A stretch of 64,000 nt of DNA from Trypanosoma brucei (Eukaryota), in contig CH464491.1 in the NCBI GenBank assembly GCA_000002445.1, positions 2,624,001 to 2,688,000 of the forward strand. Direction: 5' to 3'. Below, piece after piece: positions 19,826-56,093 of this stretch. Under the pieces are notes generated by a model, which searched no databases, was not told where the DNA came from, and saw only the letters and a program-made list of their open reading frames with translations. Positions within the stretch are counted from its first letter, which is position 1. Every line of letters starts with the position of its first letter. The position numbers were made by a program, and so were the translations under genes.

Positions 19826-20056
19826 AAGTACCCGGTACCACGACAGAGGGGGGTTAAGTAGGGGGTTTTCACTTTTTTCGGTTTACTTTATCTTATAACT
19901 TTTGCCTTGCGGTGGGGATTTGATGCGTGTGGTGCGCATCAGTCAACACTCCTGCGCAACCCCTTCTTATAACTACCATTTTTCTGTCTCCAGTTTACTT
20001 AGTCACCTATTCTCTCTTCTCTTTTTCTTTTTTTCCTTCTACGAAGGGGCCAAACC

Positions 20057-20272
20057 ATGGCGAAGTCGAAGAACCACACCAATCACAACCAGTCGCGGAA
20101 GAACCACCGCAATGGGATTAAACCCCCGCTGCCGTTGTACATGTACAACTCGAAGCGCGGTGGGTGGCTGCCGGCCCTCGTTAACACCCGACGTGTGAGG
20201 AAGAACAATCAGAAGGCTGCGCTGAAGGCGCGCCGTGAGCGACTCGCCGCCCATCAGGCCGCACAGAAATAA
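20057..20272 (+). CDS. RPL29: 60S ribosomal protein L29 (eL29), copy 1
   Basis: 71-aa MAKSKNHTNHNQSRKNHRNGIKPP.. matches the eL29 N-terminal signature; highly basic. Confidence 0.9.
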   Translation: MAKSKNHTNHNQSRKNHRNGIKPPLPLYMYNSKRGGWLPALVNTRRVRKNNQKAALKARRERLAAHQAAQK

Positions 20273-20673
20273 GGAGTCTGTCTTATCGCTGCATGGTTAA
20301 GCGCGTTGTGACGTTCTTGATGGCCCCATTGTCTATTTTGCTGCTGTATTGCTGTGATTTTCTCTTTCATACGCCCCTTTCAGTTCTCTTGGGTTGTTTT
20401 TGCGTGCCGTCACAGTCGTATTTCTGTGGCCGGGCTGCATTAGCTACATTTAGTTGTAAACATGCATTCGTGCCTCATCTTGTTGCTAGTGTACCTGTTG
20501 TTGTTATTCCTCCCAACTTCCTCTCCTTTCTCACTTGTTTTTCTTTTTTTGCTCGCACGCTGTTTGTCACAATCTGGCATTTATCACGTGTGCGCCACCA
20601 AACAAAACGTCGGCACCTGCCTCCTTTTGTTTAACTGCGCCGCTTCTTTAGGAAGGTTATTTGATACTCGAAC

Positions 20674-20889
20674 ATGGCGAAGTCGAAGAACCACACCAAT
20701 CACAACCAGTCGCGGAAGAACCACCGCAATGGGATTAAACCCCCGCTGCCGTTGTACATGTACAACTCGAAGCGCGGTGGGTGGCTGCCGGCCCTCGTTA
20801 ACACCCGACGTGTGAGGAAGAACAATCAGAAGGCTGCGCTGAAGGCGCGCCGTGAGCGACTCGCCGCCCATCAGGCCGCACAGAAATAA
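20674..20889 (+). CDS. RPL29: 60S ribosomal protein L29 (eL29), copy 2 (identical)
   Basis: Nucleotide-identical to copy 1 over CDS plus 25 nt of 3' flank. Confidence 0.9.
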   Translation: MAKSKNHTNHNQSRKNHRNGIKPPLPLYMYNSKRGGWLPALVNTRRVRKNNQKAALKARRERLAAHQAAQK

Positions 20890-21183
20890 GGAGTCTGTCT
20901 TATCGCTGCATGGTGATTGGGGAAAAGCAGTGTCGATACTTTCCGCTTTTATTTTTCACTTCCTTTTGACATTTTCTTTTCTTCTATTTCCCTGTTACAT
21001 GATCTCGTTCATGTTATGGGTGCTTTTCTTCCAGTAACGAGGGATGGGAGTCTATAACACTTTTCTCCTCTATTTTCTCCCCTCATGTTTTTTTGATATC
21101 CTCTACAAATCCCTCCGTGGTCTCCCCCTTGTCACTGCAGCTGAAGTTCCCACTAGGATTTCTTAGGCGCACGTGTAGACGAA

Positions 21184-32529: not shown

Positions 32530-35127
32530 ATGTCCCAGAGCCGTCATCTCAATAATTTTTTGTGCCTCAAAGGGAAGTTGTTAGAGGGCCGGTGTTTGTG
32601 TGCGCGTGGGAATCCAGAGTGTGCCCTTTTTTCGTTAAGACGCTCCAAGCGCCTGACCACATCGTGCATTTGTGCGTGTGACGAGAGGTTTGCTTTGACT
32701 GAGGCTGTGGCTGTGGAAATGTCCCTCAACCGCAAGTATAGCAGTGCGAAGGACCGTGGGCCCACTATTGTTATCCCTAACATACCAAAAATTACTGACA
32801 TACGGTCTCGTGGGAAGCTTATGTGTGAGTATGAGAAATATGAAGCGGAGTTATTCAAGCACCACCTTGGCCCGCCGGACACAACGTGCACAATGAGCGT
32901 CAAGCAGGCTCCTACGGATTTCGATAGACGCGTCCCGGGGATGGATGAGCCAACAGCAGCCGATCTCCTCCACGAAAGACGCAAGACTCGAGGTGGGGCC
33001 AGGTGGGGATTGGAGAAAAGATTTGGAGCACCCGTTTTCGCAGCAGGTGGCACTGGGGGAAACACTAGCACAAAGCAACAAGCTGCTGGTAGGCATGGGA
33101 GTGTGCCATACTCTGCAGCGGATGGAGGAAATAGTAGGGGGGCACTACCCGCGGTACCATCGGTGACACCCCTAGATGTTTCTACTAATAATCCTCCCAA
33201 TCAGCAGGGCACTGCTGGTAATAACCGAGATAATACGTCAACGTACTCACCATTGTCAATACGCGCGCCTGAAGAGGACCCTGAGGATGTGCTTTCTTCA
33301 TCAGCGAGAAGGAGGGGAACAAAAGGACAAAGGGTTTCGCTTCAGGTACCGCGGCGACCACCACAAGGTGCTGATCCTACGGTGAAAATCGAGGAAGCGG
33401 AGGGGAAGGAGCCTTTAGGCCGTACGCAAGAGGGGAAGTCCAAAGGGGGCCGGCGGTTTCGTAGTTTGCCGAGACGGGCACCGCTTCGTGTGCAGTCTCC
33501 TTTGTTTGATACAGAGTTTTTGGCTCCTGGAGGTTGTAATTGGACTGTGTGTACGGGACAGGACTACTCTTCGTGGAACGCTGAGCATTGCGCGGAGGTT
33601 TTACGTGTCCTCCTGAAACCCCCACCGGAGTATGGTGAATCCTTCAAAGTAGACATGAGCCACACAGACCTTCGCTGGATGTGGAACGGACGTATGCCCA
33701 AGAACTTCACATCATTGCAGTCATGGCGAGTAGAAGAAGTGAAGGGCAGAGTTGTTCCTGTTGTCAATTCACCGCGCTCCGCTCTTGTAATGCTGCGCTG
33801 TGGTATCACAGTTCCAGACTTGTTAGTTCACGAGATAGGGGATGACGCTCCACTTCTTCCAACGGACCCTGAGGACCGTACAATGGTGAAGAGTATTCGT
33901 ATGAAGCAACATAAAGCATCAGTTATATCAATCTTGGAGCAGGTGCGAAATGAGTACTGCTCGTTATGTTGCGCAGTAAGCCTCCCGGATCTAGTTGAGG
34001 CGTTTCGTAGGAAGCGGCAGGTCAATATTGAGGTGGCTAAGTCTGCAATGATACGGGATGCTCTGGAGAAGCAGAAGCGCTTGTTTGAGTGTGCCGAGAG
34101 GAAGTTAGAGGTTGAGGCTAACCGTGCAAAGAACTTACAAGAGCGGGAGCGATTGATAGAACTCCGGAACGAACGACTACAGGAAATGATGATGGAGAAG
34201 GTACGACGCAAGAGGGAAGAGGATCTCATCGCGCAGCAAAACGCTGCTGCTCGAATCAAGCTTCAGCAAGAACGTAATGCCGAACGGGAGAAGGAATATC
34301 AGCGGGAGTTGCAGGAACGGCTTGAACGCGCCGAGGAACGGACCGCCAGGCAGCAGGCTGCGCGGGACCACCTGTTGGAACAGCGTCGTATTCGGCGGAA
34401 GAAAAATGCTGAGGAGCGGCAGGCACGAATAGAACGTATGGCAGAGATGCAGGAGCAGCAAAGTGAAATACTCAGGCGGAAGTATGAGGAGAGGGATGCA
34501 AAAGTACAGCTTGTGCAAGAGGAACGAGAACGCAAACAACGGGAGGCACAAGAATTACTTGCCGCGAGGGCCGCCAAATCGCAAGAGTTGAGGGAGCAGG
34601 CGCGTCAGCGAGCCCTGCTGCGCGAAGAAGAGGTGCGCCAGGCCGCGCTTGGACAGCAACAAGAGGTGGAGAACCGTCTGCGGCAGCTCACTAAGCAACG
34701 GGAGGAGGAGGTTGCGGAGCGTGCGAAGAAAGAGGCCGAGAAGCGAGAGCGTTTGAAGGGCGTGCTTACGTTGACCGCAGAGAAGCAAATCAGTCTAAAG
34801 GAGGTATCTTTGAAGAAGCAGGAAAAATTCAAGGAACGCCATGATGAGATTCAGCGCCACCAGGCGGAAGAAATCATGCTTAAACGCGAGCGTGAGCGAG
34901 ATCTCATGGAGGCAAAAGCCTTTGCCGTGCTTCAAAAGAAACGTGTCGCTGAATTTAACAAAGTAGAGGTGGTATTGCAACTAATTGCTAAGCGTGAGGC
35001 AACCGAAGCTCTCGAAACTCAGCGTGAGATGCTCCTCCGCGAGAACTTTAAGAATCATGCAACCTTGACACAACACAGGAAATCGTTGAAGGAGGATATT
35101 GCTAGAAAAAAGTCACTACAGGGATAA
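32530..35127 (+). CDS. large coiled-coil protein with extended E/R/K/Q-rich helical region (865 aa as called; start may be Met at 32719)
   Basis: ~230 residues of uninterrupted charged heptad-free ER/K sequence (RERLIELRNERLQEMMMEKVRRKREEDLIAQQNAAARIKLQQERNAEREKEYQRELQERLERAEERTARQQ..); Ser/Pro/Gly-rich low-complexity N-terminal third. Confidence 0.7.
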   Translation: MSQSRHLNNFLCLKGKLLEGRCLCARGNPECALFSLRRSKRLTTSCICACDERFALTEAVAVEMSLNRKYSSAKDRGPTIVIPNIPKITDIRSRGKLMCEYEKYEAELFKHHLGPPDTTCTMSVKQAPTDFDRRVPGMDEPTAADLLHERRKTRGGARWGLEKRFGAPVFAAGGTGGNTSTKQQAAGRHGSVPYSAADGGNSRGALPAVPSVTPLDVSTNNPPNQQGTAGNNRDNTSTYSPLSIRAPEEDPEDVLSSSARRRGTKGQRVSLQVPRRPPQGADPTVKIEEAEGKEPLGRTQEGKSKGGRRFRSLPRRAPLRVQSPLFDTEFLAPGGCNWTVCTGQDYSSWNAEHCAEVLRVLLKPPPEYGESFKVDMSHTDLRWMWNGRMPKNFTSLQSWRVEEVKGRVVPVVNSPRSALVMLRCGITVPDLLVHEIGDDAPLLPTDPEDRTMVKSIRMKQHKASVISILEQVRNEYCSLCCAVSLPDLVEAFRRKRQVNIEVAKSAMIRDALEKQKRLFECAERKLEVEANRAKNLQERERLIELRNERLQEMMMEKVRRKREEDLIAQQNAAARIKLQQERNAEREKEYQRELQERLERAEERTARQQAARDHLLEQRRIRRKKNAEERQARIERMAEMQEQQSEILRRKYEERDAKVQLVQEERERKQREAQELLAARAAKSQELREQARQRALLREEEVRQAALGQQQEVENRLRQLTKQREEEVAERAKKEAEKRERLKGVLTLTAEKQISLKEVSLKKQEKFKERHDEIQRHQAEEIMLKRERERDLMEAKAFAVLQKKRVAEFNKVEVVLQLIAKREATEALETQREMLLRENFKNHATLTQHRKSLKEDIARKKSLQG

Positions 35128-35815: not shown

Positions 35816-36790
35816 ATGACAGACATGGAACTTGTGGAAGCTTTAAATGCAACGGAGGTGCCTATTGCACGGGCAGTTTTTCTTATGATTTCTGCAGTTC
35901 AAGACGCAGACGCCGGTGACAACAAAACTTGGTCGTGTTGTCATCCCGACCGGAGTCCAGCTGCGTCGCCGGGCTCAACGACCGGATGGAGGTCGCTTCG
36001 TGAAAGTCCATCGGGACCTGCAGTTATTGAGGTGTGTTACAATGATGGCGCTGACAGTTTTTTGACAGTTAAATGGGTTCCTATGGACAAAACTCATTTG
36101 GTGATGATTACCCAGCGGAGTGATAGGGAACGGTCACACCAACCCCTAAACACGTCATTTTGCATTGAAGATGAACCCCTTGCCTCACTTGTTTTAGGGC
36201 AGCAAACGGGATCGGGGGCTTCAGCGGCAGCAATGTGGACTGCTGAGAGTCTCGGGTCAGCTCTTCACCGACTGCGTTGTTTGCTTCAGTCTGCAATCGG
36301 CAATACCGGTCGTGGTTCCGAGCAGAATGAGAAGTTTTCTGCAGCGCAAGACAGTGACTGTGGACGGGAATTGCCGAGCCCGCGGGAGACGCAACCTCGT
36401 CCTCTTGAATTCCACTGCGGTGGACCCGCCCCTCCTCCTTCCCCTCCCGTGCCTTCCCAAGGCAGTTTGCTATTTGCGGGAGTGGTCCCGCGTCCTCCCG
36501 GCGCCCGTTACGGCGAAGCGGATCTCATCCCCGGTGGTGGAGGTTTTGGTATGGGTGGCGGCATGATGCTCGGCCGTGAAGCCTTCCAAGGCTCGCATAT
36601 AGTCCCTGCTCGCTACAATCCAATGTTTCCGGGCGATGTCCCGCCTAGGGTGCGGCCTCCTGGTCGGTACGGTTCAACGTTTCCTGGGGAACCCGATCCT
36701 GACAACTTTTTGCCCCCAGGTGGCCCGGCTTTTAGTTCCAGTTTTGGACCCGGACGAATGAACGGTTTTGGCGGACATTTTTACCGTTGA
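35816..36790 (+). CDS. hypothetical protein (324 aa) with Pro/Gly-rich C-terminal tail
   Basis: + ORF; C-terminal ~110 aa low complexity (PPPSPPVPSQ.., GGGFGMGGGMMLG, PGG repeats). Confidence 0.5.
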   Translation: MTDMELVEALNATEVPIARAVFLMISAVQDADAGDNKTWSCCHPDRSPAASPGSTTGWRSLRESPSGPAVIEVCYNDGADSFLTVKWVPMDKTHLVMITQRSDRERSHQPLNTSFCIEDEPLASLVLGQQTGSGASAAAMWTAESLGSALHRLRCLLQSAIGNTGRGSEQNEKFSAAQDSDCGRELPSPRETQPRPLEFHCGGPAPPPSPPVPSQGSLLFAGVVPRPPGARYGEADLIPGGGGFGMGGGMMLGREAFQGSHIVPARYNPMFPGDVPPRVRPPGRYGSTFPGEPDPDNFLPPGGPAFSSSFGPGRMNGFGGHFYR

Positions 36791-36946
36791 CGGTCCTGGT
36801 GAGTAGTTTTCCTTCAGTGTTGTTTTTATTGGCTTAGGTGTCTGGGCCTAGCAAACCACCACATGATTTCATTCCTTTTCTGTGTGCTCCATTCTTTGCT
36901 TCGCTGAATGTGTGGGATAGACTGATCCGTTTTCACCTCCTCACTG

Positions 36947-37828
36947 TTGGTTGTTGTACACCTCTCCACTACGTTTCCCCTCATTTCTTCAACATCATCG
37001 ATTCTTCTAGACCTAGAGATGGTGTCGTACGCCTCTGCATTGACAAAGGATGGCCGCAAACGCGCTCCGCGACCACTTTTTGGCGTTAACATTGTGAAGC
37101 CATTTCCGTGGGTGCGTGTCGTGCTGGGCCTTGGCGCAGTGGCCTTCCTTACCCGACGGGAGTACAATGCAAGGTATCAAGTATCACCCCGTGATCAGTT
37201 CCTGCGCAAGGTTGTTGTCGTGCCATACGGCGTTCTTGGTATGCAGATGACTCTACAAGGTGGCCTTGTACGGGCTGGCAGTGAGCCGGACGAAAGCACG
37301 TTTATTGTGGACCCGGCCAACTTGCGCCACATCTTCACGACGGCGGTGGGCGCAACCGGCGCCTCTGGGGCGATCTACAACATGTTAGGTCTTCGTGGTC
37401 CGTTTCCCGATGAGGTGGTGCAGGCCATTTCCCGTGTGTGTGACACCAAATTTTACAAATACGGCGAGAGGGCTAACGTCATTCACGTGGTTGACCCCGA
37501 TTTCCGTGAGGGTGCCTGGTCAGAGCGCGAGGCAGCAGTTGAGCTTTCACGTGCATACCGAAATGTGTTTCACGAGTTCGTAAGAGGTGATGGAGATGTG
37601 TTGCGTGTGCCGCCGCTATCGAGTGGTGTGCTTTCTGGCTCACTTTACAACCAGCTTCCCATCATAACACAGTCTGCGGTAGCTATGGCCTTTGAGCAGT
37701 TACATACGTTTGATCGTGAATATCTGTTGCGCCGCGACAAGCAGGTTGAGTTGTGCGTGTTTATGAACAGAGAGTGGGATATGTACCAGAATGTCTTCAA
37801 GAACTGCACGCAGCCCTCCAAATTGTAG
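36947..37828 (+). CDS. macro-domain-like protein (ADP-ribose-binding fold), tentative
   Basis: NVIHVVDPDF.. and ..VLRVPPLSSGVLSGSLY.. resemble the macro-domain blocks (VIHtVGP.. / ..iAFPaIstGiyGyP). Predicted N-terminal TM segment (VVLGLGAVAFL). Recognition is by eye only. Confidence 0.5.
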   Translation: MVVVHLSTTFPLISSTSSILLDLEMVSYASALTKDGRKRAPRPLFGVNIVKPFPWVRVVLGLGAVAFLTRREYNARYQVSPRDQFLRKVVVVPYGVLGMQMTLQGGLVRAGSEPDESTFIVDPANLRHIFTTAVGATGASGAIYNMLGLRGPFPDEVVQAISRVCDTKFYKYGERANVIHVVDPDFREGAWSEREAAVELSRAYRNVFHEFVRGDGDVLRVPPLSSGVLSGSLYNQLPIITQSAVAMAFEQLHTFDREYLLRRDKQVELCVFMNREWDMYQNVFKNCTQPSKL

Positions 37829-38694: not shown

Positions 38695-41600
38695 GTGGGT
38701 CATAGAACGCGGGTAGGTATGGAGCGAAGGAGGTTGTTGCACGATGGTCGGTGGTTTACTCCGCCAGTCCTATACGGTAGTGCGCGGCGTGGTTTGAAGA
38801 CGCTTGATGTTCGCGAGTATCGGCCGCTTGCGATGCCGATAGAGTTCCGATTTTACCAACGGTACGCAAATCATCCGAATCGGCAGTCTGGCATACAATT
38901 TCTCACCCACTACAATACCCATCAGAGGTTTCGTGTTAACAAAGACTACATTGACTACATGCACTGGGGAAAAGAGCAGGGGCAAGCTAGACTTCCACAT
39001 CGTCACCAGCGTGTAGCATTCGACTTTAACGACCAGTTGCACCCGACGCGCATTGGGACTCCAGAGGATGGTGGTAATGCCAACCACTGCTATCCCGAGG
39101 ATGGGGAAGACGGCTCATACGCATGGTTTGCTTCACAGGACCCAACGTTTGGACACCACCCCGACTTGAGTTCATCATTTGACCCTAACTATCGGGTTTT
39201 CTCGCACCCAGAGCATTGGAACAAAATGTTCACGAAGCGACGGCCAGGTGAAGGTGATATTGATCTCAGTGTGCTTCCGTCACGCAGTTTATTGGGGCCG
39301 CTAATGGCACATTCTGATACTAAAGGAATTCCATACTTTAAGGTAGACAACCGGGGACACAGTAACGGGAGAGTACCGGGTGTTAACGCTCCATTTTTTG
39401 GTGAATTTGATCAGAAGATGATGCAAGCCATGTCACGTCCACTCAACGCAAACCGCACTATCACTGGCAACGATGGGCGTTTCTCAAAGACCATTATGAT
39501 AAACGAACCCCAATGTAATCAAGCGTTGAGTGCTAAGACGGCTAGTGAGTTGAGCAAGGAGATTGACAAGGCAACGAATGCTGTGTACTCGAAGCTTAGT
39601 GTTCTTGAAGCTGCTCAGTCAGGTCTTACTGATTACTTCTGTGGGGGTCTCAACTTTGAGATTGTTGGGTTTGAGCTGCACATGGCGGCGATGTTGCGTG
39701 AGCGCGCAGCAGCCATTCTTGAGAGAAGTGGTGCTGGAGGACTGCCGAGCGCTTCATCGGCAACGCTGTCATCGTCTTCGACAACCAGAAGATGTGCTAT
39801 GCTTTTGGAGAAAGCGGACGAACGTGAAGTAAACAAGTTGCTGCGGGACGCCTCAAGGTACGAGGATCGTGTAGATGATGCCCTCCGCCAGCACGCGTCA
39901 CTCATATGGCGTGTATACACTGCGCCCCGCCCCCTTATGACGTTGACTAACGGCAAGTGCCGCGGCACTGGGTGTGGTCTATCTCTCTTCGCGAAGTATT
40001 GCGCCCTTAAGGATTCTTCAGAGTTTATATTTGATGGCCCTAACGTGGGCATTACACCGTACGGCGGTATGACGCGCCTGCTCGCGCGACCCGAAACGTC
40101 TCTCAAGTATCCGGGGTTGGCGGAGTTTGTTGTTTTGACCGGCGCTTCTCTTTTCGCTGGTGACGCACTGAGGCTGGGGTGGACTGACCTCTTCACAACT
40201 ATTCCTGATATGACTTACCACATCAAAGAATGGTTCGACACAACCGAGCATATGCACAACGATGCCGTTGCGTGGCAGCTTGGGCACTTGTTGGAGACGT
40301 GCTTCAAGATGAAAGAATCACATTCTTCCGCAATGGAGCGCGCGGCAATAACCCCTACAAGGGCGCGTTGGGTAGAGGATGCCTTTGCTGATCAACCATC
40401 AGTCAATGACATCATGAGGACCCTAACAGAAATTGAACAACTGCCATTTCAGTCGACCCACAACACAAGTGACGAGTCTCATATCACACCCTACACACTA
40501 GGGAGCGTAGCAGCTGGTGTGCAGCGATTGGGCGAACATCGCCTGCGGTACACACTTTCCCCGTGGGACATTACGCCTCCAGAAGATAGTGTGGTGTTGA
40601 AGCACACGTCGGAGATGTTCAGGGCGTACGTGTTGGAGCGACGCGGGGCGACGGATGTCGTAACTCACCGTGATGCGGAGAGGGCTGCTGCTTGGAGTCA
40701 GCAGAGGCAAAGGGAGTATGATGCTTACTGCAGTCTGAAGGAGGCGCCGCATCCGCGGCATGTGTATGCGCGTCTTGAAGGGTGTGAGGGGAAGATCGTA
40801 TCGTTTGAGTTTGTTTTCGAGATAAGTTGTAGAAGGAGTGGGCCACAAGGTACTGACGAAGTCCTCCAAGCTACCACAATTAGCCGACTGAAGAGTCGGA
40901 TATTGGATGCGCTTGGTATGCCCCGGGATCGGAACATCGATTTGGGTTGGTACCTTCCGACATTGGACACATGCCCTATTCATAGCGACGAGGAGTTGAT
41001 GCAAGTCCTGCATACGGATCCGGGCATCGAGGATCCGAAAGAAAAACTGAGGTACCCACCCATCTATTTTATTGTGAAGCGCTGTACCCTGTACTTCTCT
41101 GAGTGGGCCTATGCTGTGAAACACCAGTTGTTGCTGCAGTCTCCTTTTGCGCTCCGGGCGGCGTTTGGGTTGCTGCAGGAAGTGCGCGGGGATGGCGCGG
41201 CAGAGAATGTTATGCCGCTCGCAGAAACGCTAGGAACGGAGTTCAAGTATTTTACGCGGCTCATGCGTCGACCCGACTTTTACCGTGTAGGAGTTCATAC
41301 GGACAAATCTGTGGAGAAATGGGAAGAAATCAAGGAGGAGCGGCGGCATAATATCCACCACACTCACAGACCAACGCGTCCGCTTCCTGACTTCGAGGAG
41401 GTTTTCGAACGTGATGTTGAAATTGATGGGCATCGGTTTGTACTGCGGCCGCGCTGGAACCCTCGTACGCTACAGGATGTGGACGACTCCGACATCTTGC
41501 GGTTGCGGGCACCACTAACGTACGATATGGATTCCACGGCCGCTCTCCACGTTCCCACTCACTGCGGTAAAGCCTCCCGACTCGCTGGAATGCTGCAAGA

Positions 41601-42354
41601 CGCAGGAGGCGTCCAAGTTTTGGATGGTCTTGGCGAGGTAGACGACAAGGGGGAACCTAAAGTACCGCCGCTGCAGAGCAATGCATCTGTGCCGACAAAT
41701 GTTAGCTTTTATGAGATGGCGCGGCACCCATGGGAAGACAGGGCGTCGTCGTGGCGTCGTGACGGCTTCACTGAGGGATCACTTGAGTATTTTGAGTCCC
41801 AATACCGTTCTGCAGAGCGAGCTGTTTACGATGAAGAGGGTCGAGGCGTGCGGAATTACTGGCCTTCGCGTGATGCCGTTGAGGGTATTGCGCAAGAGGA
41901 AGAGAATGACGCACAGCTACTGCAAGAGCGCCTTTTCAACACACTTGAAACTGCAGGTACAAGCGTGGAACCATGGGCCCGTAATCTTCGGCTCAATGCA
42001 ACCACAGGAAAGTTCGGATACAAAACTGAGATTGCGACACAGGAAGAGAAGATATACGACGATGAGTATTACCGCTGGTTCATTCAACCCGGACGCCACC
42101 CGAACCCCAGTGGCCTCACCCTCAACGGCAGGAAGGGACAGTTCGAAGAAGGTCACTCTCGCGATGAAGAACTTGAGCGCATGTGGCGCAAGGTTGTTGC
42201 CGATGGAAACAACGACTTTGCTGCAACGACTTCCGGAATGCCCGTGTATGACGGGGACGCCAAAAACGCGGAAGATAGCTATGCTGCGGGTGATGATGTC
42301 GACGTGGTGACGACTGACGCCAATGTGCCGGTGGATGGGGACGATAGCAGCTGA
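38695..42354 (+). CDS. large protein (1219 aa) with central enoyl-CoA hydratase/isomerase (crotonase)-fold domain
   Basis: aa ~395-520: RPLMTLTNGKCRGTGCGLSLFAKYCALKDSSEFIFDGPNVGITPYGGMTRLLARPE.. LTGASLFAGDALRLGWTDLF mirrors ECH/HIBYL-CoA hydrolase motifs (GGG..la...d.r.a.e.a.f..pE..lGl.P..Ggs..L.r). Arg-rich N-terminus; long flanking extensions. Confidence 0.7.
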   Translation: MGHRTRVGMERRRLLHDGRWFTPPVLYGSARRGLKTLDVREYRPLAMPIEFRFYQRYANHPNRQSGIQFLTHYNTHQRFRVNKDYIDYMHWGKEQGQARLPHRHQRVAFDFNDQLHPTRIGTPEDGGNANHCYPEDGEDGSYAWFASQDPTFGHHPDLSSSFDPNYRVFSHPEHWNKMFTKRRPGEGDIDLSVLPSRSLLGPLMAHSDTKGIPYFKVDNRGHSNGRVPGVNAPFFGEFDQKMMQAMSRPLNANRTITGNDGRFSKTIMINEPQCNQALSAKTASELSKEIDKATNAVYSKLSVLEAAQSGLTDYFCGGLNFEIVGFELHMAAMLRERAAAILERSGAGGLPSASSATLSSSSTTRRCAMLLEKADEREVNKLLRDASRYEDRVDDALRQHASLIWRVYTAPRPLMTLTNGKCRGTGCGLSLFAKYCALKDSSEFIFDGPNVGITPYGGMTRLLARPETSLKYPGLAEFVVLTGASLFAGDALRLGWTDLFTTIPDMTYHIKEWFDTTEHMHNDAVAWQLGHLLETCFKMKESHSSAMERAAITPTRARWVEDAFADQPSVNDIMRTLTEIEQLPFQSTHNTSDESHITPYTLGSVAAGVQRLGEHRLRYTLSPWDITPPEDSVVLKHTSEMFRAYVLERRGATDVVTHRDAERAAAWSQQRQREYDAYCSLKEAPHPRHVYARLEGCEGKIVSFEFVFEISCRRSGPQGTDEVLQATTISRLKSRILDALGMPRDRNIDLGWYLPTLDTCPIHSDEELMQVLHTDPGIEDPKEKLRYPPIYFIVKRCTLYFSEWAYAVKHQLLLQSPFALRAAFGLLQEVRGDGAAENVMPLAETLGTEFKYFTRLMRRPDFYRVGVHTDKSVEKWEEIKEERRHNIHHTHRPTRPLPDFEEVFERDVEIDGHRFVLRPRWNPRTLQDVDDSDILRLRAPLTYDMDSTAALHVPTHCGKASRLAGMLQDAGGVQVLDGLGEVDDKGEPKVPPLQSNASVPTNVSFYEMARHPWEDRASSWRRDGFTEGSLEYFESQYRSAERAVYDEEGRGVRNYWPSRDAVEGIAQEEENDAQLLQERLFNTLETAGTSVEPWARNLRLNATTGKFGYKTEIATQEEKIYDDEYYRWFIQPGRHPNPSGLTLNGRKGQFEEGHSRDEELERMWRKVVADGNNDFAATTSGMPVYDGDAKNAEDSYAAGDDVDVVTTDANVPVDGDDSS

Positions 42355-46643: not shown

Positions 46644-47118
46644 GATCACGAAACAGCATTTTCTGGTTGTTAGTTGCGACCTTTTTTTCTTATTTGGCTC
46701 TCCATTTCTTTTGCTTTCGTTGCTGAGCGCACCGCCACACATTTGAAACTCCCCTCCACTGATATCAGCGCGTATTTTTACTTACTTTCATGTGCCCTGA
46801 CGAAGAAGCAACAATAAAATGGAAAGTGTAAAGCAGGGGGAGGGTGAAGCCAGATGTGCGAAGGAAAAGTAATGCTGTTTCTGTCTGCATAACTGTTTTA
46901 AACTTTTCAGAATGTTTTTAACTTTTGTATGTGCTAGTGTTAAGGTACCTTTTTCGTGATCTACTTCAGTCGTCGTTTTGTCTCCTACTGCATAATATCC
47001 CGCAAATGGCATAATGGGACAAGGGAAGGGGGCCACTGAAAGTCGAAAAAGGGGGCGAAAAAACGCTCAGGACTGCACGTAGTGCCAATATTTCCACTAA
47101 CGTTGGACAGCCGACTAC

Positions 47119-50100
47119 ATGGCACAAATGTTCCCCTCTGTGCCGGGGTATGACGGTCCGTTTAGTTTAAAGGACTTCTTGCATAACTATATCGGTTTGC
47201 AGCTGCGTTGGAGCACACCTCAGGAAAATTCCACCACTTTACCTCCCTCAAACTCGAACGTTGTCGTTGTGCCCCCGACGGGAAACTTTCATGTTGTAGT
47301 GTATGTTTCACGGTCCGCGCCTCCACCCCAGCGGTCCGTACGTTCTGTCGCGGTACTGTCTTCGTGTAGTAATAAAATGGATGGAGACCATCCGCAGCCA
47401 TCGGTGCCAACACATTTTCATGGGAGGCCGCTAACTTCCTCAGTACTGAAGCACCCCTTTTGGGACGCTCTCTTCTCGCAGATTGGGCCAACAGCTGTCA
47501 GTTTCATCGTACTCTGGGCCCCTATAGTTGTGCAATTTGAGGCGTCTGGTGGTGGCCTACAGGTGTTGGGCCCCCCTCTGAAGCGTAGCGCCTCCTGCGC
47601 GGTGAAGCGTCAGCCAGGTGCTGGCTGGTGGGAGGGAAAATTAAAGGTGTCACGGACTGAAACACTAACGCAGAATGACCCTCACTGCTTCTGTATCGAG
47701 GGGACATCATCCCCTGTGGCATTGTATCGTTTAAATGTTCCTCGCCTGCATCTTGTTGAACAGTCACCCTTGAGGAGTACCGCGGATGCTCGCCATGCCG
47801 TTACTCTCATCCTGGAACAGTTGTGGATAGAGCATCACAAATCGAGCTGCTCTCCCTCGTCCGATAGGGACATTTCTCAGCGTCTCTGCGGCGTCGCCAC
47901 AGGTTCCGCCACGAATTGCTGCGGCGATAGTTGTGTTGTCTTGGCGCAGGCTAGAAATCAAGTTAATGCCGTTTTCCCGTACACTTTGTTGCCTGTTCAC
48001 GACGACGCTGTGTCTGGTAATGGAACCGTCAAGGAGTATCTCATCCATGTGCTGCACTGTGCGCTGGGGAGCGTGTGCCGTATGAACATACGCGGGGCTG
48101 CGATAAAACATACCGAATTCTTGGAAAAACGTGGCAAATCTGTTACCAGCATTTCTCAGAAGGCGCAGACCGCCGGGCAGGAGAATAAGATGCGCGCGAT
48201 TCCTGTTGGTGAGCTGACTGTGCCGGAGCCCGTTGTGGCTTCGTATCTGGAAACTCTCTTTAACATGATGTGGTGGCGTGTCCCTCCACGTTTTGTTGGC
48301 GGTGCGGTAACTGCCGATCGGGTTAAATTTTGGGGTGAAGAAGGAACTGTGCTGACAAGGTTGCGCGAGGTTACTGTGGATTGGTTGTGCTGCGGAAGAC
48401 ATGAGGTATTTCTTTTGAGTCATTTCTTGGATGGGGTGCCCGTTTCGAGGATTCCTTGGCTACGTGGTTTCTACACGAAGGAGCCTGCACGAAAGCGGCG
48501 GTCCATGATTCAGCAGCGAGTGTTCCTGCAGCTTGTGCTCTTCCTCTATCAATGCGTGGTACCATTTTTGATCCGTCGTTCGTTCCATGTTGCTTGTACC
48601 TCTAAAAGCCCGTATATATTTTTTTTCATACCAAGGGCTGTTTGGGTACGCCTCACTCGTCGTGAAATGCGACGTGTGTGCATTCGTCGCGTAAAAAGAA
48701 TGCGCTCCGATACTTTATCAGACCCACAAATGAGGGGGCACGCGGGGTTACCGCCAATGGCGCTGGAGCGTGTGACTTCCGAAGGACTGATGCAACTGAT
48801 AGGACCCTCGTCACAGCCGGTAGGTGATGACAGTGGCGGCGTAAGCGATGTTTGCAAACTCCGTGACAGTTCCTCACCACTTTTATATTCGGATGTCCGT
48901 TTTTTAGTTGATGGTAGTAAACTGCGGCCCATCGCCCGTCCTCGGTTTGGCTGGCAGCGCTCGCTTTTGAAAGCTGCCGACGGGGTTGGGTCGTCAACGC
49001 TTGCTTCAGCCCTTGCAAAGGCGGGGAAGTATTTGGCAACGGATGGTAAAGCCATGTGGCCGTCCCCTAACTCTGCTGTTTTACGGGATGCTTTGCGGTG
49101 CCTTGATGCGGGGGTGGAGGAGCGACGTATTACAACAGGGGCAAGGCAACGCGCCATTGGATCTCACAATGATGAATATATTGAAGTGCGGTCATTTATT
49201 CAATGCGCAAGGCAGTTTTGTACCATACCCACGTTGGTACAGGGTGAAACATCAGCGGCGCTGTTGGCGGATGCTACTGCCGTAACAATGGTGCGTGGCG
49301 ACGCCGCGCGGTGTTACGACCATTTACCGCAGGAGGCAGTAGTGAATATCATGCGGGGTCTCGTCACGCACGAGACTTATTACTCACTTAAGCTGACCGT
49401 TGTTACGCTGACTACGGTCAAAAATGTTAGCAAAAAGACTAGAAGTAGTCATGCAGAAAGTCAATTATCGTCGATGAAGGAGACGAATGGTTCGACTGTC
49501 AAGCACCGGAAGCTACAGTTGAGCAAACGTGTCAAACTTGTACCCGGGAGGTACGTACAAGAAGGCGTTCTCTATGGTATTGCTCGAGGATGCATTGCTT
49601 ATGAGGAACAGTCGGTAGGCTCCGATTCCTTGGTAAGCGGCGAGGAGATAAGAAGTGTGCTGCAGAAACATCTGCAGTCGCACCTCGTGATGCTGAACGG
49701 CAAGATGTACATACAGCGTATGGGTATAAATCAAGGATCTGCTGTGGCGATGTTGCTTTGTGATCAACTTCTCGAGCGAGTTGATGCGGCCCTTTCCAGT
49801 ATTCTCTCTGAACACGAGGAACCAGCGCTGTTGCTGCGTCGCGTGGATGATGTACTGGTGGTAACACTCTCTCGTGCTGCAGCGTCACGGTGCGAAGACG
49901 CTTTACGCAGTGGTTGGTCCGAAATTGGTTTCTTCTGCCAGGAGGAGAAATTGAGAAGAGTGACTTGTGGCCAACCCGTACGCTGGTGTGGGCTCCTTTG
50001 GGATCCGGTAACCTTGGAGTTTGCAGTGGACTGGGCGCGGCTGGCCAAGATGATGCCATATCTCGCCGTGCGTCCCAGGACAGGGTGTGAGCCACTACTT

Positions 50101-50697
50101 TCCTCACTACGTTTTATCAGGATACTTCGACTTCGAACGCCGATGACGGCACTCTGCCGACAAATAAACAGTAAGTCCCGTGTGGTGCAGACGTTATACG
50201 AGATCGGTCTGCTCTGGTCCCGCTTCTTCTTGGACAAACTGAAGGCCAACGCTGCCTTTTTTAGGCCGCATGTGCGCACTATATTACAACCTCTTGCCCT
50301 TGCGACTGCTACGCTGCGTCGCCTGGTGCGGAAACATTCCTTTGACCTGCAGCGGCTGGGTTCTTTTTGCGACGTTACTGATGTTGAAGTACGACTTTGT
50401 ATTTCCGCCGCGCTCTACCATACACTCCATCAGCGGCTGGCGTTCATGATCGGCAGGATGTCGAGCGTGGGGAAGAAAAAGTTCCTGATATTAATGACGG
50501 CGGTTTTAAAACGAAAAATGGGAGAACTGGGATCTAGGATCAACAGGAATAATCAAATGGAATCTTCTCTTCCCTCTGCAGCTGATTTGTTGCTGGTGGA
50601 GGGCGGTGATGGCGTAGTTTCAAGGGGTCTTGCGGCAGTGCGTTTCAGACCTGTCGAAACTGTGCGGTTTCAGGGATGTGCGACGCGCTCTGCATGA
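47119..50697 (+). CDS. TERT: telomerase reverse transcriptase (TERT)
   Basis: 1192 aa. RT motif A ..VRGDAARCYDHLPQEAVVNIM (cf. human ..VKVDVTGAYDTIPQDRL), motif B' QRMGINQGSAVAMLLCDQLLE (cf. QGIPQGSILSTLLC) at ~49720-49780, motif C LLLRRVDDVLVVT (cf. LLRLVDDFLLVT) at ~49831-49870. Long N-terminal TEN/TRBD-sized region and C-terminal extension. Confidence 0.9.
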   Translation: MAQMFPSVPGYDGPFSLKDFLHNYIGLQLRWSTPQENSTTLPPSNSNVVVVPPTGNFHVVVYVSRSAPPPQRSVRSVAVLSSCSNKMDGDHPQPSVPTHFHGRPLTSSVLKHPFWDALFSQIGPTAVSFIVLWAPIVVQFEASGGGLQVLGPPLKRSASCAVKRQPGAGWWEGKLKVSRTETLTQNDPHCFCIEGTSSPVALYRLNVPRLHLVEQSPLRSTADARHAVTLILEQLWIEHHKSSCSPSSDRDISQRLCGVATGSATNCCGDSCVVLAQARNQVNAVFPYTLLPVHDDAVSGNGTVKEYLIHVLHCALGSVCRMNIRGAAIKHTEFLEKRGKSVTSISQKAQTAGQENKMRAIPVGELTVPEPVVASYLETLFNMMWWRVPPRFVGGAVTADRVKFWGEEGTVLTRLREVTVDWLCCGRHEVFLLSHFLDGVPVSRIPWLRGFYTKEPARKRRSMIQQRVFLQLVLFLYQCVVPFLIRRSFHVACTSKSPYIFFFIPRAVWVRLTRREMRRVCIRRVKRMRSDTLSDPQMRGHAGLPPMALERVTSEGLMQLIGPSSQPVGDDSGGVSDVCKLRDSSSPLLYSDVRFLVDGSKLRPIARPRFGWQRSLLKAADGVGSSTLASALAKAGKYLATDGKAMWPSPNSAVLRDALRCLDAGVEERRITTGARQRAIGSHNDEYIEVRSFIQCARQFCTIPTLVQGETSAALLADATAVTMVRGDAARCYDHLPQEAVVNIMRGLVTHETYYSLKLTVVTLTTVKNVSKKTRSSHAESQLSSMKETNGSTVKHRKLQLSKRVKLVPGRYVQEGVLYGIARGCIAYEEQSVGSDSLVSGEEIRSVLQKHLQSHLVMLNGKMYIQRMGINQGSAVAMLLCDQLLERVDAALSSILSEHEEPALLLRRVDDVLVVTLSRAAASRCEDALRSGWSEIGFFCQEEKLRRVTCGQPVRWCGLLWDPVTLEFAVDWARLAKMMPYLAVRPRTGCEPLLSSLRFIRILRLRTPMTALCRQINSKSRVVQTLYEIGLLWSRFFLDKLKANAAFFRPHVRTILQPLALATATLRRLVRKHSFDLQRLGSFCDVTDVEVRLCISAALYHTLHQRLAFMIGRMSSVGKKKFLILMTAVLKRKMGELGSRINRNNQMESSLPSAADLLLVEGGDGVVSRGLAAVRFRPVETVRFQGCATRSA

Positions 50698-51060
50698 AAT
50701 GCAAGCTTTTCTCCTTCACGCGCACGCACAAGCGTCTTTTTTTATTTTATTTTGTTACCAACCTACATCCTTTTGATGTTTGCAGTTAATTTTGTTGCGA
50801 CCACTTGCTGCTTCCTCGAGGCACCGGTACGATTTTGGTTTTCCCTTATTTTATTGTGCGGAAAAAAAATGTCTTTCCCTTACTTATATTCGATTTCGCT
50901 CGTGCGTGTCTCTCTCTCCGTTAGCAATTAGTACATTCCTATAAGTAGGTGGGAGGAAAACGAACTTTGAGTGAAAGGAAACCCACTAGCTACAGGAAGG
51001 GTAGAAAGTGTTGAAATATACAATAAAAAAAAGAGGTAACAGCTGGCGGAGACGCTAATA

Positions 51061-52533
51061 ATGAAGTCCAAGGATGTGGAGGATGCTGGATGCGTTGGGC
51101 AGTGGATTGACAACCGAAAACGGGCAAGTGACGATGCTGACTCTTTCGTGAAATCAGCCATGACAATAAGTCAGTCGGCGTCATCCATTGGTGCCTCCGC
51201 GCAGACCCTACGCAATTTGGACAGAGGCCGAAAAAGGAGTGAATCCTCCAAGAAATCGGCTGGCAAGAAGACCAGTAGCGCACCGTCTTTACTTCCTCAG
51301 ATAAAGGTGAAATCTGCGAAGCAGGGCAAGGCGACGGGCAGACCACCGATTTCTGCCTCAAACCCCTCAGGAGGGGCGCGGAAGGGATCATTGAAGGGGA
51401 AGGCAACTGGTTCGATTTCTCTGACGTCTCAGAGCACAGGTGGTGGCAGCGTGGGGAAAAGGGGCAAGTCCCCCAAATCAAGAGGTGGGGCGAAAGGAGG
51501 GAAAAAGCGACCTTCATCGATTGGGAGGCCCTCAAGCAGGGGATCGAAGGGGTCATCTCGGCGGGGGTCTCGTTTAAGTCGAGGCAGTGGACGCACGAGC
51601 ACGAAGGGAAAAGGGGGGCGGAATTCGAGAGGAAAGAAAGGCAAAAAGTCTAAGCGTAGCAAATCTTTTGCGGGTGCCGATAAGATCACATATGCTATTT
51701 CTTCGTTAACTTTAGCGGAAGAAGACCAGCGAAGCAATATTTGGGCAATGGAAGAGACTGAGCGTGATGCTCTCCTCCCTGATTATCACCTACTCGTTAT
51801 AAACATGCTCCGGGCCCAAGTTGTTGAAGTAAATGCGCGCCAGCAGTCCTTAAACGATGCCTTCATGTCTAGACAGGGCAATGGTCTCAACTTTTTATTG
51901 GGAGATGACCCTGCCGCAGCACTGGAGCTTTTGCGGACGCAGATACGGTTAGAAATGCAGGGGGAAGTGGAAAAGCTCGCTTCGGCAAATGCGGTACTAA
52001 GTGGCCTTCTTGAGGAAAAGAAAGCTGAGTTAGAGGAAAAAACCAACGAGGCGCAGTCACTCCAGGACAAGGTCAATCGTAGGCTTGCCCGTTTTGAAGT
52101 GGATTGTGAAGCACTTCGCACTGAGGTCCAATCTGCATTGAAGACTGAACGTTTAGATATCGATAGAATGAAGCGTGAGCTCATTCGTCGCCTAGACATG
52201 GCAACCGCTGCGCTGCGTACGCCCAAGTATGATACAGCGCTGCGCTCCATGCAGGCACTGGTGCAGAGTGTGCAGGATGAGATACAGGAGCATCATGATA
52301 ACATGAGTAAGCTGATTGTATCAATTGAGGCTCAGGACACTTTTGTTCGCAACAAAAGCGATACAATGCACAGCAACTTTCCCGTCCGCTACAGAGAAGA
52401 GCTGAGGAAATTGGACAACGACAAGCTACTGAACCTGCTGGACATCTTGTCTTTCCACGATTCTGTAGTAGAAACTGTTGGTAAGACGTTGTATGTAATA
52501 AGTAGCACAGGTTACGCTACAAATGTTTTCTAG
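51061..52533 (+). CDS. hypothetical protein (490 aa): basic Ser/Gly/Lys/Arg low-complexity N-half, coiled-coil C-half
   Basis: aa ~60-210 ..SRGGAKGGKKRPSSIGRPSSRGSKGSSRRGSRLSRGSGRTSTKGKGGRNSRGKKGKKSKRSKS..; then heptad-like ELLRTQIRLEMQGEVEKLASANAVLSGLLEEKKAELEEK... Confidence 0.6.
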   Translation: MKSKDVEDAGCVGQWIDNRKRASDDADSFVKSAMTISQSASSIGASAQTLRNLDRGRKRSESSKKSAGKKTSSAPSLLPQIKVKSAKQGKATGRPPISASNPSGGARKGSLKGKATGSISLTSQSTGGGSVGKRGKSPKSRGGAKGGKKRPSSIGRPSSRGSKGSSRRGSRLSRGSGRTSTKGKGGRNSRGKKGKKSKRSKSFAGADKITYAISSLTLAEEDQRSNIWAMEETERDALLPDYHLLVINMLRAQVVEVNARQQSLNDAFMSRQGNGLNFLLGDDPAAALELLRTQIRLEMQGEVEKLASANAVLSGLLEEKKAELEEKTNEAQSLQDKVNRRLARFEVDCEALRTEVQSALKTERLDIDRMKRELIRRLDMATAALRTPKYDTALRSMQALVQSVQDEIQEHHDNMSKLIVSIEAQDTFVRNKSDTMHSNFPVRYREELRKLDNDKLLNLLDILSFHDSVVETVGKTLYVISSTGYATNVF

Positions 52534-53186: not shown

Positions 53187-56093
53187 TTGCCCGAACAGAT
53201 AGGAAGCAATATGAATCCATCTGGTCCCAGTGGTCACCATGAGGAGAGGTTAAGAAGCTCTGCACCGGTGTACACCAACGTGCGTCGCGAGGCACGAAGG
53301 ATGCAGCGTGAAGCGATGGAAGTTAACGCAAGGATAAGGGAAATAGAGGCTCGTGGGCAGATGAGACACAAACAAGAGCGGGTGATGTTGCGCGCCAAGG
53401 TTGACAACATCGTAGAGGGGCTTGTTGGAGGCACCGAAGGGATCGTCCCTCCCAGTGTGCTTGACCCACCTATTGAAAGGATACCAGAACCATGCTTTTT
53501 ACGGCCTACAGAGAAAAAACAAACATGTACAGGGTCGGGAATGGCTCCAGTGAAGTTAATTTCACTCGCTTCCAGTGCCGGCCGCATGCCCGATGACGTT
53601 CGTAGTGGCCGCTATCCAGGGGGCTCACCCTCTAAAGGTGTTACGCCTAGAAACCGTGTGGACGCCTCTGAATCCAAAGCGGGTGAGCCGCCGCGAGGGT
53701 TCCCCGTCCCCTTTGAATCCTCAGGGTTCCGGTGCCCCATTCAGTGGGCGGAGATGAGCCTTCATGAGGTGTTGATAACTGCATTAGGGCCCCGCTCCGA
53801 ACGGGAAAGGAGGGGTACGGATGTGCCTCCGAACCGTTTGCTTGTTAGTGTGGCGTCGCATCTACTAAATGAAGTTCTTTCGCGTGATACACGTTATGCG
53901 ACGTTATGGCCGCTTCTTCGGGACGTTGTCTTCAAGGGACTCTTCGCTCCGACAAATTTCAAGCAATCACCTTATATGGGTGGACGTGAACCCCCCAGTT
54001 ACCCCAGTTTTGTACCAGCAGCTGACTACTTTGGCTTGCGTTTGTGGTCGGATGAGTATCTTCTGAGTCGCAGGGCGGAGTTGCATCTTTCTGATAGGGT
54101 CACTGACTTGAACAGTGCGTTGAATAGCCGTGGGGATATTTTTCAATTTGCAGTCAAGCAAATTGAAAAAGCCAGCAAAAGGAGTGCTTTTCGAGCATGG
54201 CGAGCAGTTGTGCAGCGCAACCGAATTCTCCGAGACAACGTAGTAGCATACCTGAAGCGCGTCCGTCAGAGGATGGTTGTGGAGGGTAGCTTCCTGCGAT
54301 GGCGGCGCCTTGTTGTACAAACGAAGTTAGAGGAGCTGAGAGTGTCTCTGAAGGAATCGAATGTGCGCTTCTCTATTAGCGAGAGTAATAGTAAAGAAAC
54401 AATAAGGGAGCTGGAGGAGAGACTCGAGGAAGAGCGAAAGGGGGCTGAGGTGATGAAGTTGAAAATCGAATCACTCTCCATGCAGCTAGTTGAAAAGCAG
54501 ATGCTTGATCTCCGGACGCTGGACTCCACGTTGCGAAACTACCGCGCTATGTGTGGGGACGCCAAGAAGGAGAGTAAACGGTGGGAACGTTTGGCAAAAA
54601 CATTTTCGTGCCGTTCAGGGTGCCCGGTTTTCCCAGCATCGATGAAAAGGCATGCTCACAGCCTGCGTTCCATTGAGACTTCGTGTGTTGGTCAGGGCAC
54701 GCAAGCTTACGAACGTGTTGTGGACGCGCGCTGCTCCCTCGAGTCACTTCTGGTAGCCTGGATTAACTCTTTGATGAAGGATCAAAATGACCACTCTTGG
54801 AAGGCTGTAAGGAAGATTGAACTGGGGTCTGATGCTGGTGATTTCAGTGTCAGTGCTCTCTGTAAGTTAGTGCGGACATTGGATTCTATATACAACACCA
54901 GGGGCGCAGAGCATGTGATGTGTGGTTCAGCGGCCTCGACAAATCCAAGTCGTGCGACTTCTCTGACAAAATGTATCGAACTGCTGCGGGAAGGGAATGA
55001 ATCATCAACAGTAGTTTTCCAGGAGCTTGTCCAACTTATTCACAAGCAAACAGTGGATGGTCTTTTCCCTCCATTACTCTCCCACTGTTCGTATCTTGAC
55101 ACTTTTTACACCCCTTCAACCTTTTGTCAAAAACCCCATCCAACTGCTATGCTGTGGGTGCTGGCTACGCTTTTCGTTGGGTATGCGCGTTTGGTAGCGG
55201 GTGTTCCGTCATTTGCATCGCATGATATCGAGCAGCGGCTACGGTGTCAATCTGAGGCCTCAATAGGCTGCCTTGCCTTAGGCCCCGTGCCTGAGGAGGG
55301 GGAGGTTAACAAGCAACCTGAAGGCCGGAGCCGCAGCCAGAGTATCGTCAGTTCTCACATTTTGACGACAAACACGGTCATCAAAAAATCCGCCCGTCAC
55401 AGCCGTCCGCGAAGCACGGCGTCACGTAAAGTAGCCGAAGAGGCCGCTGACGAGAAAGATCAGGCGTGTGAGAAGGCAATTGTGGACACCGCTTCTGATG
55501 TTGAGGTGTACCTCAATTGCGAGTGTGGTACGGAGGAAGAGGGAGGATACTCCAGCGATGGCGAACTGACGACAAGTGAAACTGCCACGACTCACGAAAC
55601 CGATGGACTTGAAAAAAGCACGTCAGGTGCAACGGAAAAGATGAAGCATACGCCGGGTAGCAGCAGTAAACCACAGCGTCCTGCACGGAGGTCTCAGCTT
55701 CTCCCTTCAACGAGTAAACTGTTGGTTCCAGTTGGACAGCGAGAGTTTGTTAAGTTTCACCGAGACGAGGGAAAGCGTCAACGAATGTGGATAAGTGTTT
55801 GCCGTATTGTAACGTCACTAGTGGTGAGGTTTCGTATCCTCGACGTACCGACAAGCAGCGCCGTTCCTCCGAGCTTCGCTTCACCTATGTCGTTTTCTTC
55901 GTCTCTACCACGGCTTGTTAGTGGACGACACTCATTATTTTTTAACAGTGGACGGGAGTCAAGGAGGAGCCAGTCCGGTTTGTTTCCCGTTGCCAGTAGT
56001 CCCCCAAATCCAGCCACAAAACCCAAGAGAGGGGCGTCTCAGGCACACTCTACGCTGCGGCGGTGGCTGGATAAGGCTAGGAAGGCAGAGTAG
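53187..56093 (+). CDS. hypothetical protein (968 aa), central coiled-coil, Ser/Thr-rich C-terminus
   Basis: 2.9 kb + ORF with normal composition; coiled-coil segment (LEELRVSLKESNVRFSISESNSKETIRELEERLEEERKGAEVMKLKIESLSMQLVEKQ). No family recognised. Confidence 0.65.
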   Translation: MPEQIGSNMNPSGPSGHHEERLRSSAPVYTNVRREARRMQREAMEVNARIREIEARGQMRHKQERVMLRAKVDNIVEGLVGGTEGIVPPSVLDPPIERIPEPCFLRPTEKKQTCTGSGMAPVKLISLASSAGRMPDDVRSGRYPGGSPSKGVTPRNRVDASESKAGEPPRGFPVPFESSGFRCPIQWAEMSLHEVLITALGPRSERERRGTDVPPNRLLVSVASHLLNEVLSRDTRYATLWPLLRDVVFKGLFAPTNFKQSPYMGGREPPSYPSFVPAADYFGLRLWSDEYLLSRRAELHLSDRVTDLNSALNSRGDIFQFAVKQIEKASKRSAFRAWRAVVQRNRILRDNVVAYLKRVRQRMVVEGSFLRWRRLVVQTKLEELRVSLKESNVRFSISESNSKETIRELEERLEEERKGAEVMKLKIESLSMQLVEKQMLDLRTLDSTLRNYRAMCGDAKKESKRWERLAKTFSCRSGCPVFPASMKRHAHSLRSIETSCVGQGTQAYERVVDARCSLESLLVAWINSLMKDQNDHSWKAVRKIELGSDAGDFSVSALCKLVRTLDSIYNTRGAEHVMCGSAASTNPSRATSLTKCIELLREGNESSTVVFQELVQLIHKQTVDGLFPPLLSHCSYLDTFYTPSTFCQKPHPTAMLWVLATLFVGYARLVAGVPSFASHDIEQRLRCQSEASIGCLALGPVPEEGEVNKQPEGRSRSQSIVSSHILTTNTVIKKSARHSRPRSTASRKVAEEAADEKDQACEKAIVDTASDVEVYLNCECGTEEEGGYSSDGELTTSETATTHETDGLEKSTSGATEKMKHTPGSSSKPQRPARRSQLLPSTSKLLVPVGQREFVKFHRDEGKRQRMWISVCRIVTSLVVRFRILDVPTSSAVPPSFASPMSFSSSLPRLVSGRHSLFFNSGRESRRSQSGLFPVASSPPNPATKPKRGASQAHSTLRRWLDKARKAE

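Follow-up and report, generated by a model that had tools for sequence, protein, structure and literature searches.

A complete telomerase reverse transcriptase gene within a directional gene cluster of Trypanosoma brucei

The question raised by the locus analyzed here is whether a long open reading frame (ORF) in a 64-kb stretch of Trypanosoma brucei DNA (contig CH464491.1, positions 2,624,001 to 2,688,000; hereafter, the window) encodes the telomerase reverse transcriptase (TERT), as proposed in an original prediction made from the sequence alone, or a reverse transcriptase (RT) of a different kind. The ORF runs without interruption on the + strand from the ATG at position 47119 to the stop codon that ends at position 50697 (1192 codons plus the stop). 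When 5.8 billion clustered proteins were searched with its conceptual translation, Q383R0_TRYB2 / XP_829083.1 matched with 100% identity and 100% coverage (1192/1192 amino acids (aa)). The matching accessions (Q383R0 in UniProt, XP_829083.1, EAN79971.1, and SCU72766.1) represent T. b. brucei TREU927 and T. equiperdum, and the 90% cluster that includes this protein also contains proteins from T. b. gambiense, T. b. equiperdum, and T. evansi. The gene of T. brucei TERT (TbTERT) is known under the identifier Tb927.11.10190 (PMC10061497); given that the protein is identical and no difference was detected, the window contains either the same gene or its allele from a near-identical Trypanozoon strain. 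At the DNA level, the T. equiperdum contig CZPT02001910.1, the sole contig retrieved for the exact ORF protein, is 99.93% identical to the window across 15.6 kb and carries the same flanking genes in the same order; the window is therefore assigned to the Trypanozoon core chromosome-11 sequence. We consider it nearly certain that this ORF encodes TbTERT, the catalytic protein component of the T. brucei telomerase. TbTERT has already been annotated and studied experimentally, so that the finding itself is ordinary: besides being catalogued, the gene has been the subject of knockouts and has served in proteomic and RNA-structure work, and its value here is that of an anchor, which marks the window as ordinary core-genome sequence of Trypanozoon chromosome 11.

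Several lines of domain evidence fit this identification. The Pfam family Telomerase_RBD (PF12009) matches aa 403-519 of the ORF product along nearly the entire profile (positions 17-132 of 133) with an E-value of 4.8e-16 and a score of 59.6 bits, compared to the cut-off of 25 bits; this is the significant match to a TERT profile that was to be expected for a genuine telomerase protein. The matching region (48325-48675; this and all other features of the gene are on the + strand) is the core of the telomerase RNA-binding domain (TRBD), aligns with residues 478-616 of human TERT, and includes the T motif SFHVACTSKSPYIFFFIPRAVWVRL (48580-48654, aa 488-512), of which the segment SFHVACTSKSPYIFFFIPRAVW (aa 488-509) aligns with a 22-residue segment of human TERT. 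In a search of the sequences in the PDB with the ORF product, 8 of the 8 matches were TERT chains, with human TERT detected at E = 8e-10, along with the TERTs of Candida and Tetrahymena. A profile constructed from eight kinetoplastid orthologues matched human TERT even more significantly (6e-17) and additionally retrieved the fish TRBD crystal chains 4o26 (4.7e-5) and 4lmo (6.6e-3); isolated TRBD crystal structures are matched by TbTERT both in sequence and in fold. The alignment with human TERT, called for as a check on the prediction, is significant with either query. Together, the uninterrupted ORF, the Telomerase_RBD match, the human TERT match, and the catalytic residues described next bear out the claim that the TERT gene is complete and intact.

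The hallmarks of the RT domain were examined in an alignment of eight kinetoplastid TERTs, namely, TbTERT and its orthologues from T. congolense, T. grayi, T. cruzi, T. vivax, T. rangeli, Leptomonas, and Leishmania, in which D728, Q872, G873, S874, D910, D911, and W956-L960 are invariant. Motif A, TMVRGDAARCYDHLPQ (49285-49332, aa 723-738), contains the catalytic D728, with MVRGD728AARCYDHLPQ aligned to human VKVD712VTGAYDTIPQ. Motif B', GINQGSAVAMLLC (49723-49761, aa 869-881), is aligned to human GIPQGSILSTLLC, with GINQ872GSAVAMLLC opposite GIPQ833GSILSTLLC. Motif C, LLLRRVDDVLVVT (49828-49866, aa 904-916), carries the catalytic residues D910/D911, with LLLRRVD910D911VLVVT aligned to human LLLRLVD868D869FLLVT, so that the motif C aspartates, the absence of which would have spoken against a telomerase, are in place after alignment, opposite human D868/D869. 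The strings quoted in the original prediction are all present as given (GINQGS at aa 869-874, LLC at aa 879-881, and LLLRRVDDVLVVT at aa 904-916). By analogy with the human counterparts, D728, D910, and D911 would coordinate the catalytic metals. Upstream of motif A lies a motif 1/2-like fingers block, VRFLVDGSKLRPIARPR (48895-48945, aa 593-609), which includes the invariant K601-L-R-P604 and is co-linear with human LRFIPKPDGLRPIVNMD. The segment VRFLVDGSKLRPIA (aa 593-606), co-linear with human LRFIPKPDGLRPIV, is not significant when taken alone (0.3 bits); the motif 1/2 assignment is supported by the common R-F...L-R-P-I pattern and by the position.

Motifs A and B' are separated by a long insertion at the position of the IFD (49333-49698, aa ~739-860), with a poorly conserved center (16-31% identity over aa 761-840 in the kinetoplastid comparison). 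The distance from D728 to Q872 is 144 aa in TbTERT compared to 121 aa between D712 and Q833 of human TERT; in retroviral RTs, the spacing between motifs A and B' is much shorter. Motif E, WCGLL (49984-49998, aa 956-960), is aligned to the same pentapeptide in human TERT and is followed by the C-terminal extension, or thumb (49999-50694, aa 961-1192), where the human alignment continues up to residue 1009/1132; the last ~90 aa of TbTERT are poorly conserved. Overall, the domains of TbTERT follow the canonical order, from an N-terminal module located where a TEN domain would be expected, through the RNA-binding domain with its T motif, to the RT palm and fingers and the C-terminal thumb.

Several results weigh against the telomerase assignment. 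The search with the general RT profile, RVT_1 of Pfam, also suggested as a check, gave a sub-threshold match (E = 0.035, 14.2 bits compared to the cut-off of 29.6 bits), which looks weak if taken alone. Sub-threshold RVT_1 scores are usual for divergent TERTs. Because RVT_1 fell below the cut-off, we relied on the alignments to solved TERTs as the test of the RT domain instead. The AlphaFold2 model that was built from the eight-sequence alignment is poor (mean pLDDT 42.7, pTM 0.32), with pLDDT below 45 for the N-terminal module and values above 60-70 in parts of the TRBD and the C-terminal extension only; the latter, which is helical, is the best modelled region (pLDDT 60-89). When this model was compared to the PDB using Foldseek, the top 17 matches were TERTs or TRBDs (E = 1.8e-9 for human TERT and 1.9e-6 for the Tetrahymena protein), with low global TM-scores, 0.16-0.20, that are attributable to the quality of the model. 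Given that the combined 3Di and amino acid score includes sequence information and that the domain packing is unreliable, we count the Foldseek result as weak corroboration. Finally, no TEN domain in the PDB was matched by profiles of the N-terminal region made from 7 and from 13 sequences.

Trypanosome genomes carry non-long-terminal-repeat (non-LTR) retrotransposons, and the presence of motifs A, B', and C along with the weak RVT_1 match could also be accounted for if the ORF encoded the RT of a retroelement, for example, a Penelope-like element or a non-LTR retrotransposon of the ingi/SLACS type, rather than telomerase. However, the TRBD with the T motif is located upstream of the RT domain, all neighbors of the protein in both sequence and structure are TERTs, and the protein is identical to the annotated TbTERT. 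In addition, the Pfam scan detected no endonuclease or gag-like domain; the only repeat of at least 40 nucleotides (nt) in the window is a pair of eL29 genes located at 20-21 kb, far from the ORF; the gene order is common to the T. equiperdum contig; and full-length orthologues are found in other trypanosomatid genera. The TRBD, the lack of an endonuclease or gag-like domain and of a nearby repeat, the conserved gene order, and the orthologues lead us to exclude the retroelement origin, the probability of which we consider negligible.

The low RVT_1 score, as well as an N-terminus that is unusually divergent from the canonical TEN domain, might alternatively indicate that the ORF is a dead or repurposed TERT-derived paralogue, with the telomerase supplied by another gene. 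We find this possibility extremely improbable. No variation in the catalytic triad or in motifs B' and E is seen among the Trypanosoma, Leptomonas, and Leishmania proteins; the homologue search returned a single TERT cluster for each species listed, without a second Trypanozoon cluster; and in the literature, the gene is treated as functional TbTERT, the null mutants of which have extremely short telomeres (PMC5855555, PMC10704157). The invariant catalytic residues together with this published loss-of-function phenotype exclude the dead paralogue.

Whereas the identity, the domains and motifs, and the gene arrangement are results of the present analysis, RNA binding, enzymatic activity, and the telomere-shortening phenotype are known from the literature. 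Telomeres are maintained mainly by telomerase (PMC10704157), and the enzyme consists of TbTERT and the ~900-nt trans-spliced telomerase RNA, TbTER; loss of either component shortens the telomeres, and the short telomeres of TbTERT-null cells raise the frequency of variant surface glycoprotein (VSG) switching (PMC10704157, PMC4229120, PMC5855555). TbTER copurifies with TbTERT, its template is 5'-CCCTAACCCTA-3', and mutations introduced into the template are copied into the telomeres (PMC4229120). TbTERT would bind this separately encoded, trans-spliced RNA, with the template 5'-CCCUAACCCUA-3', which would be copied repeatedly onto the 3' G-overhang, such that TTAGGG repeats are added, with D728, D910, and D911 acting as the metal-binding triad.

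The original prediction placed the telomerase RNA gene outside the window, and all the evidence we obtained agrees with that placement. No match to the TbTER template CCCTAACCCTA occurs in the 64-kb window when up to one mismatch is allowed, and the scan of the window with Rfam yielded 0 families at the gathering threshold, although whether Rfam includes a kinetoplastid TER model was not checked. The published location of TbTER is also on chromosome 11, adjoining Tb927.11.830/840, far from Tb927.11.10190 (PMC4229120).

Full-length orthologues of TbTERT were found in T. congolense, T. vivax, T. cruzi, T. rangeli, T. grayi, Leptomonas, and Leishmania, with 46-52% identity within Trypanosoma and 30-36% identity to the Leishmaniinae; PF12009 was detected in all of them. 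The TERTs of Leishmaniinae are ~200-260 aa longer than TbTERT because of sequence inserted into the N-terminal region and the linkers as well as into the C-terminal tail. The PDB copy that we searched contained no kinetoplastid TERT structures, and the closest solved chain is human TERT, with ~15% identity to TbTERT; only parts of the two proteins align significantly. Human TERT (PDB 7qxa, 7trd, 7bg9) shares with TbTERT the order of the elements (the TRBD with the T motif, motifs 1/2 and A, the insertion, motifs B', C, and E, and the beginning of the thumb), and the three catalytic Asp residues as well as QGS in motif B' are conserved between the two proteins. By contrast, the similarity in the TEN region is weak and limited to the GQ block, and neither the linker nor the far C-terminus can be aligned. 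An alignment of the TEN, TRBD, RT, and CTE regions of TbTERT with those of human and Tetrahymena TERT has been published already (PMC5855555, Fig. 2).

The residual interest of TbTERT is structural and concerns the fold and ancestry of its N-terminal module (47119-47613, aa 1-~165). The TEN domain, with its GQ motif, is present in most but not all TERTs. In the position of this domain, the kinetoplastid alignment shows a conserved block, RPLTS..L.HPFW..LF.Q.GP....F....P.VVQFE..GGGLQVLGPPL, with residues that are invariant among the kinetoplastid TERTs. The part of the module that ends with GGLQVLGPPL (47428-47607, aa 104-163) resembles the GQ region and shows a weak co-linear match to the human protein: hhalign aligned TbTERT 104-163 with human TERT 126-184 over 59 columns (P = 2.8e-4, probability 41%), placing LQVLGPPL onto YQVCGPPL of the human GQ motif. 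HMMER produced the same register at a non-significant score of 1.1 bits. In the human TERT sequence used with hhalign (residues 1-212), residues 128-186 agree with the alignment from the PDB search. The N-terminal ~165 aa, which resemble the human TEN domain only weakly, are likely homologous to TEN. In the published alignment, the N-terminal region of TbTERT is already treated as TEN (PMC5855555, Fig. 2A); the same source notes that Tribolium TERT lacks a TEN domain.

A search of 1.84 billion representative proteins with a profile of aa 1-225 (47119-47793) yielded 16 clusters only, with the match always in the N-terminal position. Among the seven distant carriers of the module that were tested, 7/7 contain Telomerase_RBD downstream, six of them at or above the Pfam cut-off and one (P0023) just below it. 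The set of sequences with this module (P0014-P0025), in which the distant members are P0017-P0024, ranges from short fragments to an 1843-aa TERT (P0024). These sequence matches make the module a TERT-specific one, the distribution of which was limited to a small clade in this search. The best PDB matches of the N-terminal profiles were at chance level (a DUF4040 protein at E = 1.5 and the C-lobe of the IRE1 kinase at E = 0.23). The narrow distribution, with only 16 clusters among the 1.84 billion proteins, and the failure of the profile searches to link the region to a solved TEN domain could be taken to mean that the N-terminal ~165-225 aa of kinetoplastid or euglenozoan TERTs are a lineage-restricted, non-TEN module with a fold of its own, a possibility that we regard as unlikely. 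If that were the case, such a module would have taken over, or replaced, the role of TEN in DNA anchoring and recruitment, which would fit the apparent absence of TPP1 and POT1 homologues in T. brucei (PMC10704157).

Whichever its ancestry, the N-terminal region had been described as very divergent and as containing Cys-rich stretches, and both descriptions have to be qualified. The divergence is real in comparison to TERTs from outside the kinetoplastids. Within the kinetoplastids, however, both halves of the protein are equally conserved: the identity to the seven orthologues is 52/48/47/42/45/33/31% for aa 1-560 and 50/51/48/46/48/34/34% for aa 561-1192, so that the N-terminal part is divergent only relative to other eukaryotes. 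The cysteine richness was overstated. Cysteine accounts for 2.9% of the residues in aa 1-560 and 2.5% in the rest of the protein; the corresponding value for the window's other ORFs is 1.9 ± 0.9% (maximum, 4.4%). What stands is one local cluster, the only one detected with a sliding window (5 Cys in 40 aa, aa ~240-283), in a poorly conserved linker (47836-47967). The linker cysteines show partial conservation within Trypanosoma, and Leishmaniinae lack them.

Turning to the genomic context, the ~30 credible genes of the window are all encoded on the + strand, without a strand-switch region, and almost all 2-kb bins have a positive GC skew. The whole window lies inside a single directional gene cluster of the kinetoplastid type. 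Such clusters are transcribed polycistronically, and the transcripts are resolved by trans-splicing and polyadenylation. The statement that TERT is embedded in a housekeeping transcription unit is thus a fair description of its unrelated same-strand neighbors, but the arrangement is the kinetoplastid default. The TERT gene is flanked, in order, by genes for a 1219-aa ECH-domain protein and a CCZ1/Intu-longin protein on the upstream side and by two ORFs without a Pfam match, followed by genes for CDC73, a proteasome subunit, and a Rieske protein, on the downstream side. Pfam matches to genes located upstream of TERT also include a CFAP298-like protein, 2-oxoglutarate dehydrogenase E1, a GT25 glycosyltransferase, Snf7, Vps26, and SDR, as well as two eL29 proteins, a biotin/lipoate ligase-family protein, and bromodomain, EFHB-like, and actin-family proteins. 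Scans of the 64-kb window for tRNAs and for tandem repeats were both empty.

In such a setting, TbTERT would have no promoter of its own, and its mRNA would arise by trans-splicing and polyadenylation from a long same-strand polycistronic cluster. Both intergenic regions that flank the gene contain pyrimidine-rich tracts followed by AG, consistent with candidate splice-acceptor regions. The upstream one (46644-47118, 475 nt), with tracts such as that at 46680-46691, is a candidate trans-splice acceptor region for TERT; the downstream one (50698-51060, 363 nt), with T-rich tracts, presumably encompasses the 3' untranslated region and polyadenylation region of TERT along with the splice-acceptor region of the next gene. 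The TER loci have likewise been described as polycistronic, with trans-spliced and polyadenylated products (PMC4229120). Inside the TERT gene, the opposite strand contains two ORFs (47764-48423 and 48549-49157, - strand; 219 and 202 aa) that are most likely accidental open frames opposite a coding region; nothing supporting them was found.

Among the other genes of the window, the two eL29 genes form a perfect direct repeat of 242 nt (20056-20297 and 20673-20914, with a spacing of 617 nt). The repeat corresponds to two identical tandem genes on the + strand (ORFs 20057-20272 and 20674-20889), each encoding a 71-aa protein that matches Ribosomal_L29e (E = 1.8e-14 each); the pair was missing from the ORF lists because of the short length of the genes. 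Identical tandem genes for ribosomal proteins are ordinary in trypanosomes. The 1219-aa ORF (38695-42354, + strand) matches ECH_2, a family of enoyl-CoA hydratases/isomerases, at aa ~385-580 (E = 1.4e-18), the remaining ~1000 aa being without a Pfam match, and is far larger than typical ECH proteins; at the same position, the T. equiperdum contig encodes a product of 1211 aa. Several + strand ORFs, of 490, 968, 822, 865, 324, and 293 aa, show no similarity to any Pfam family at E ≤ 0.001. The sites of the ORFs without Pfam matches include 51061-52533, 53187-56093, 2889-5357, 32530-35127, and 35816-37828 (all on the + strand), and these ORFs presumably encode kinetoplastid-specific proteins of the 'hypothetical conserved' category. 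In the product of the 490-aa ORF, the N-terminal half is rich in Lys, Ser, Gly, and Arg, and the C-terminal half, on visual inspection, resembles a coiled coil.

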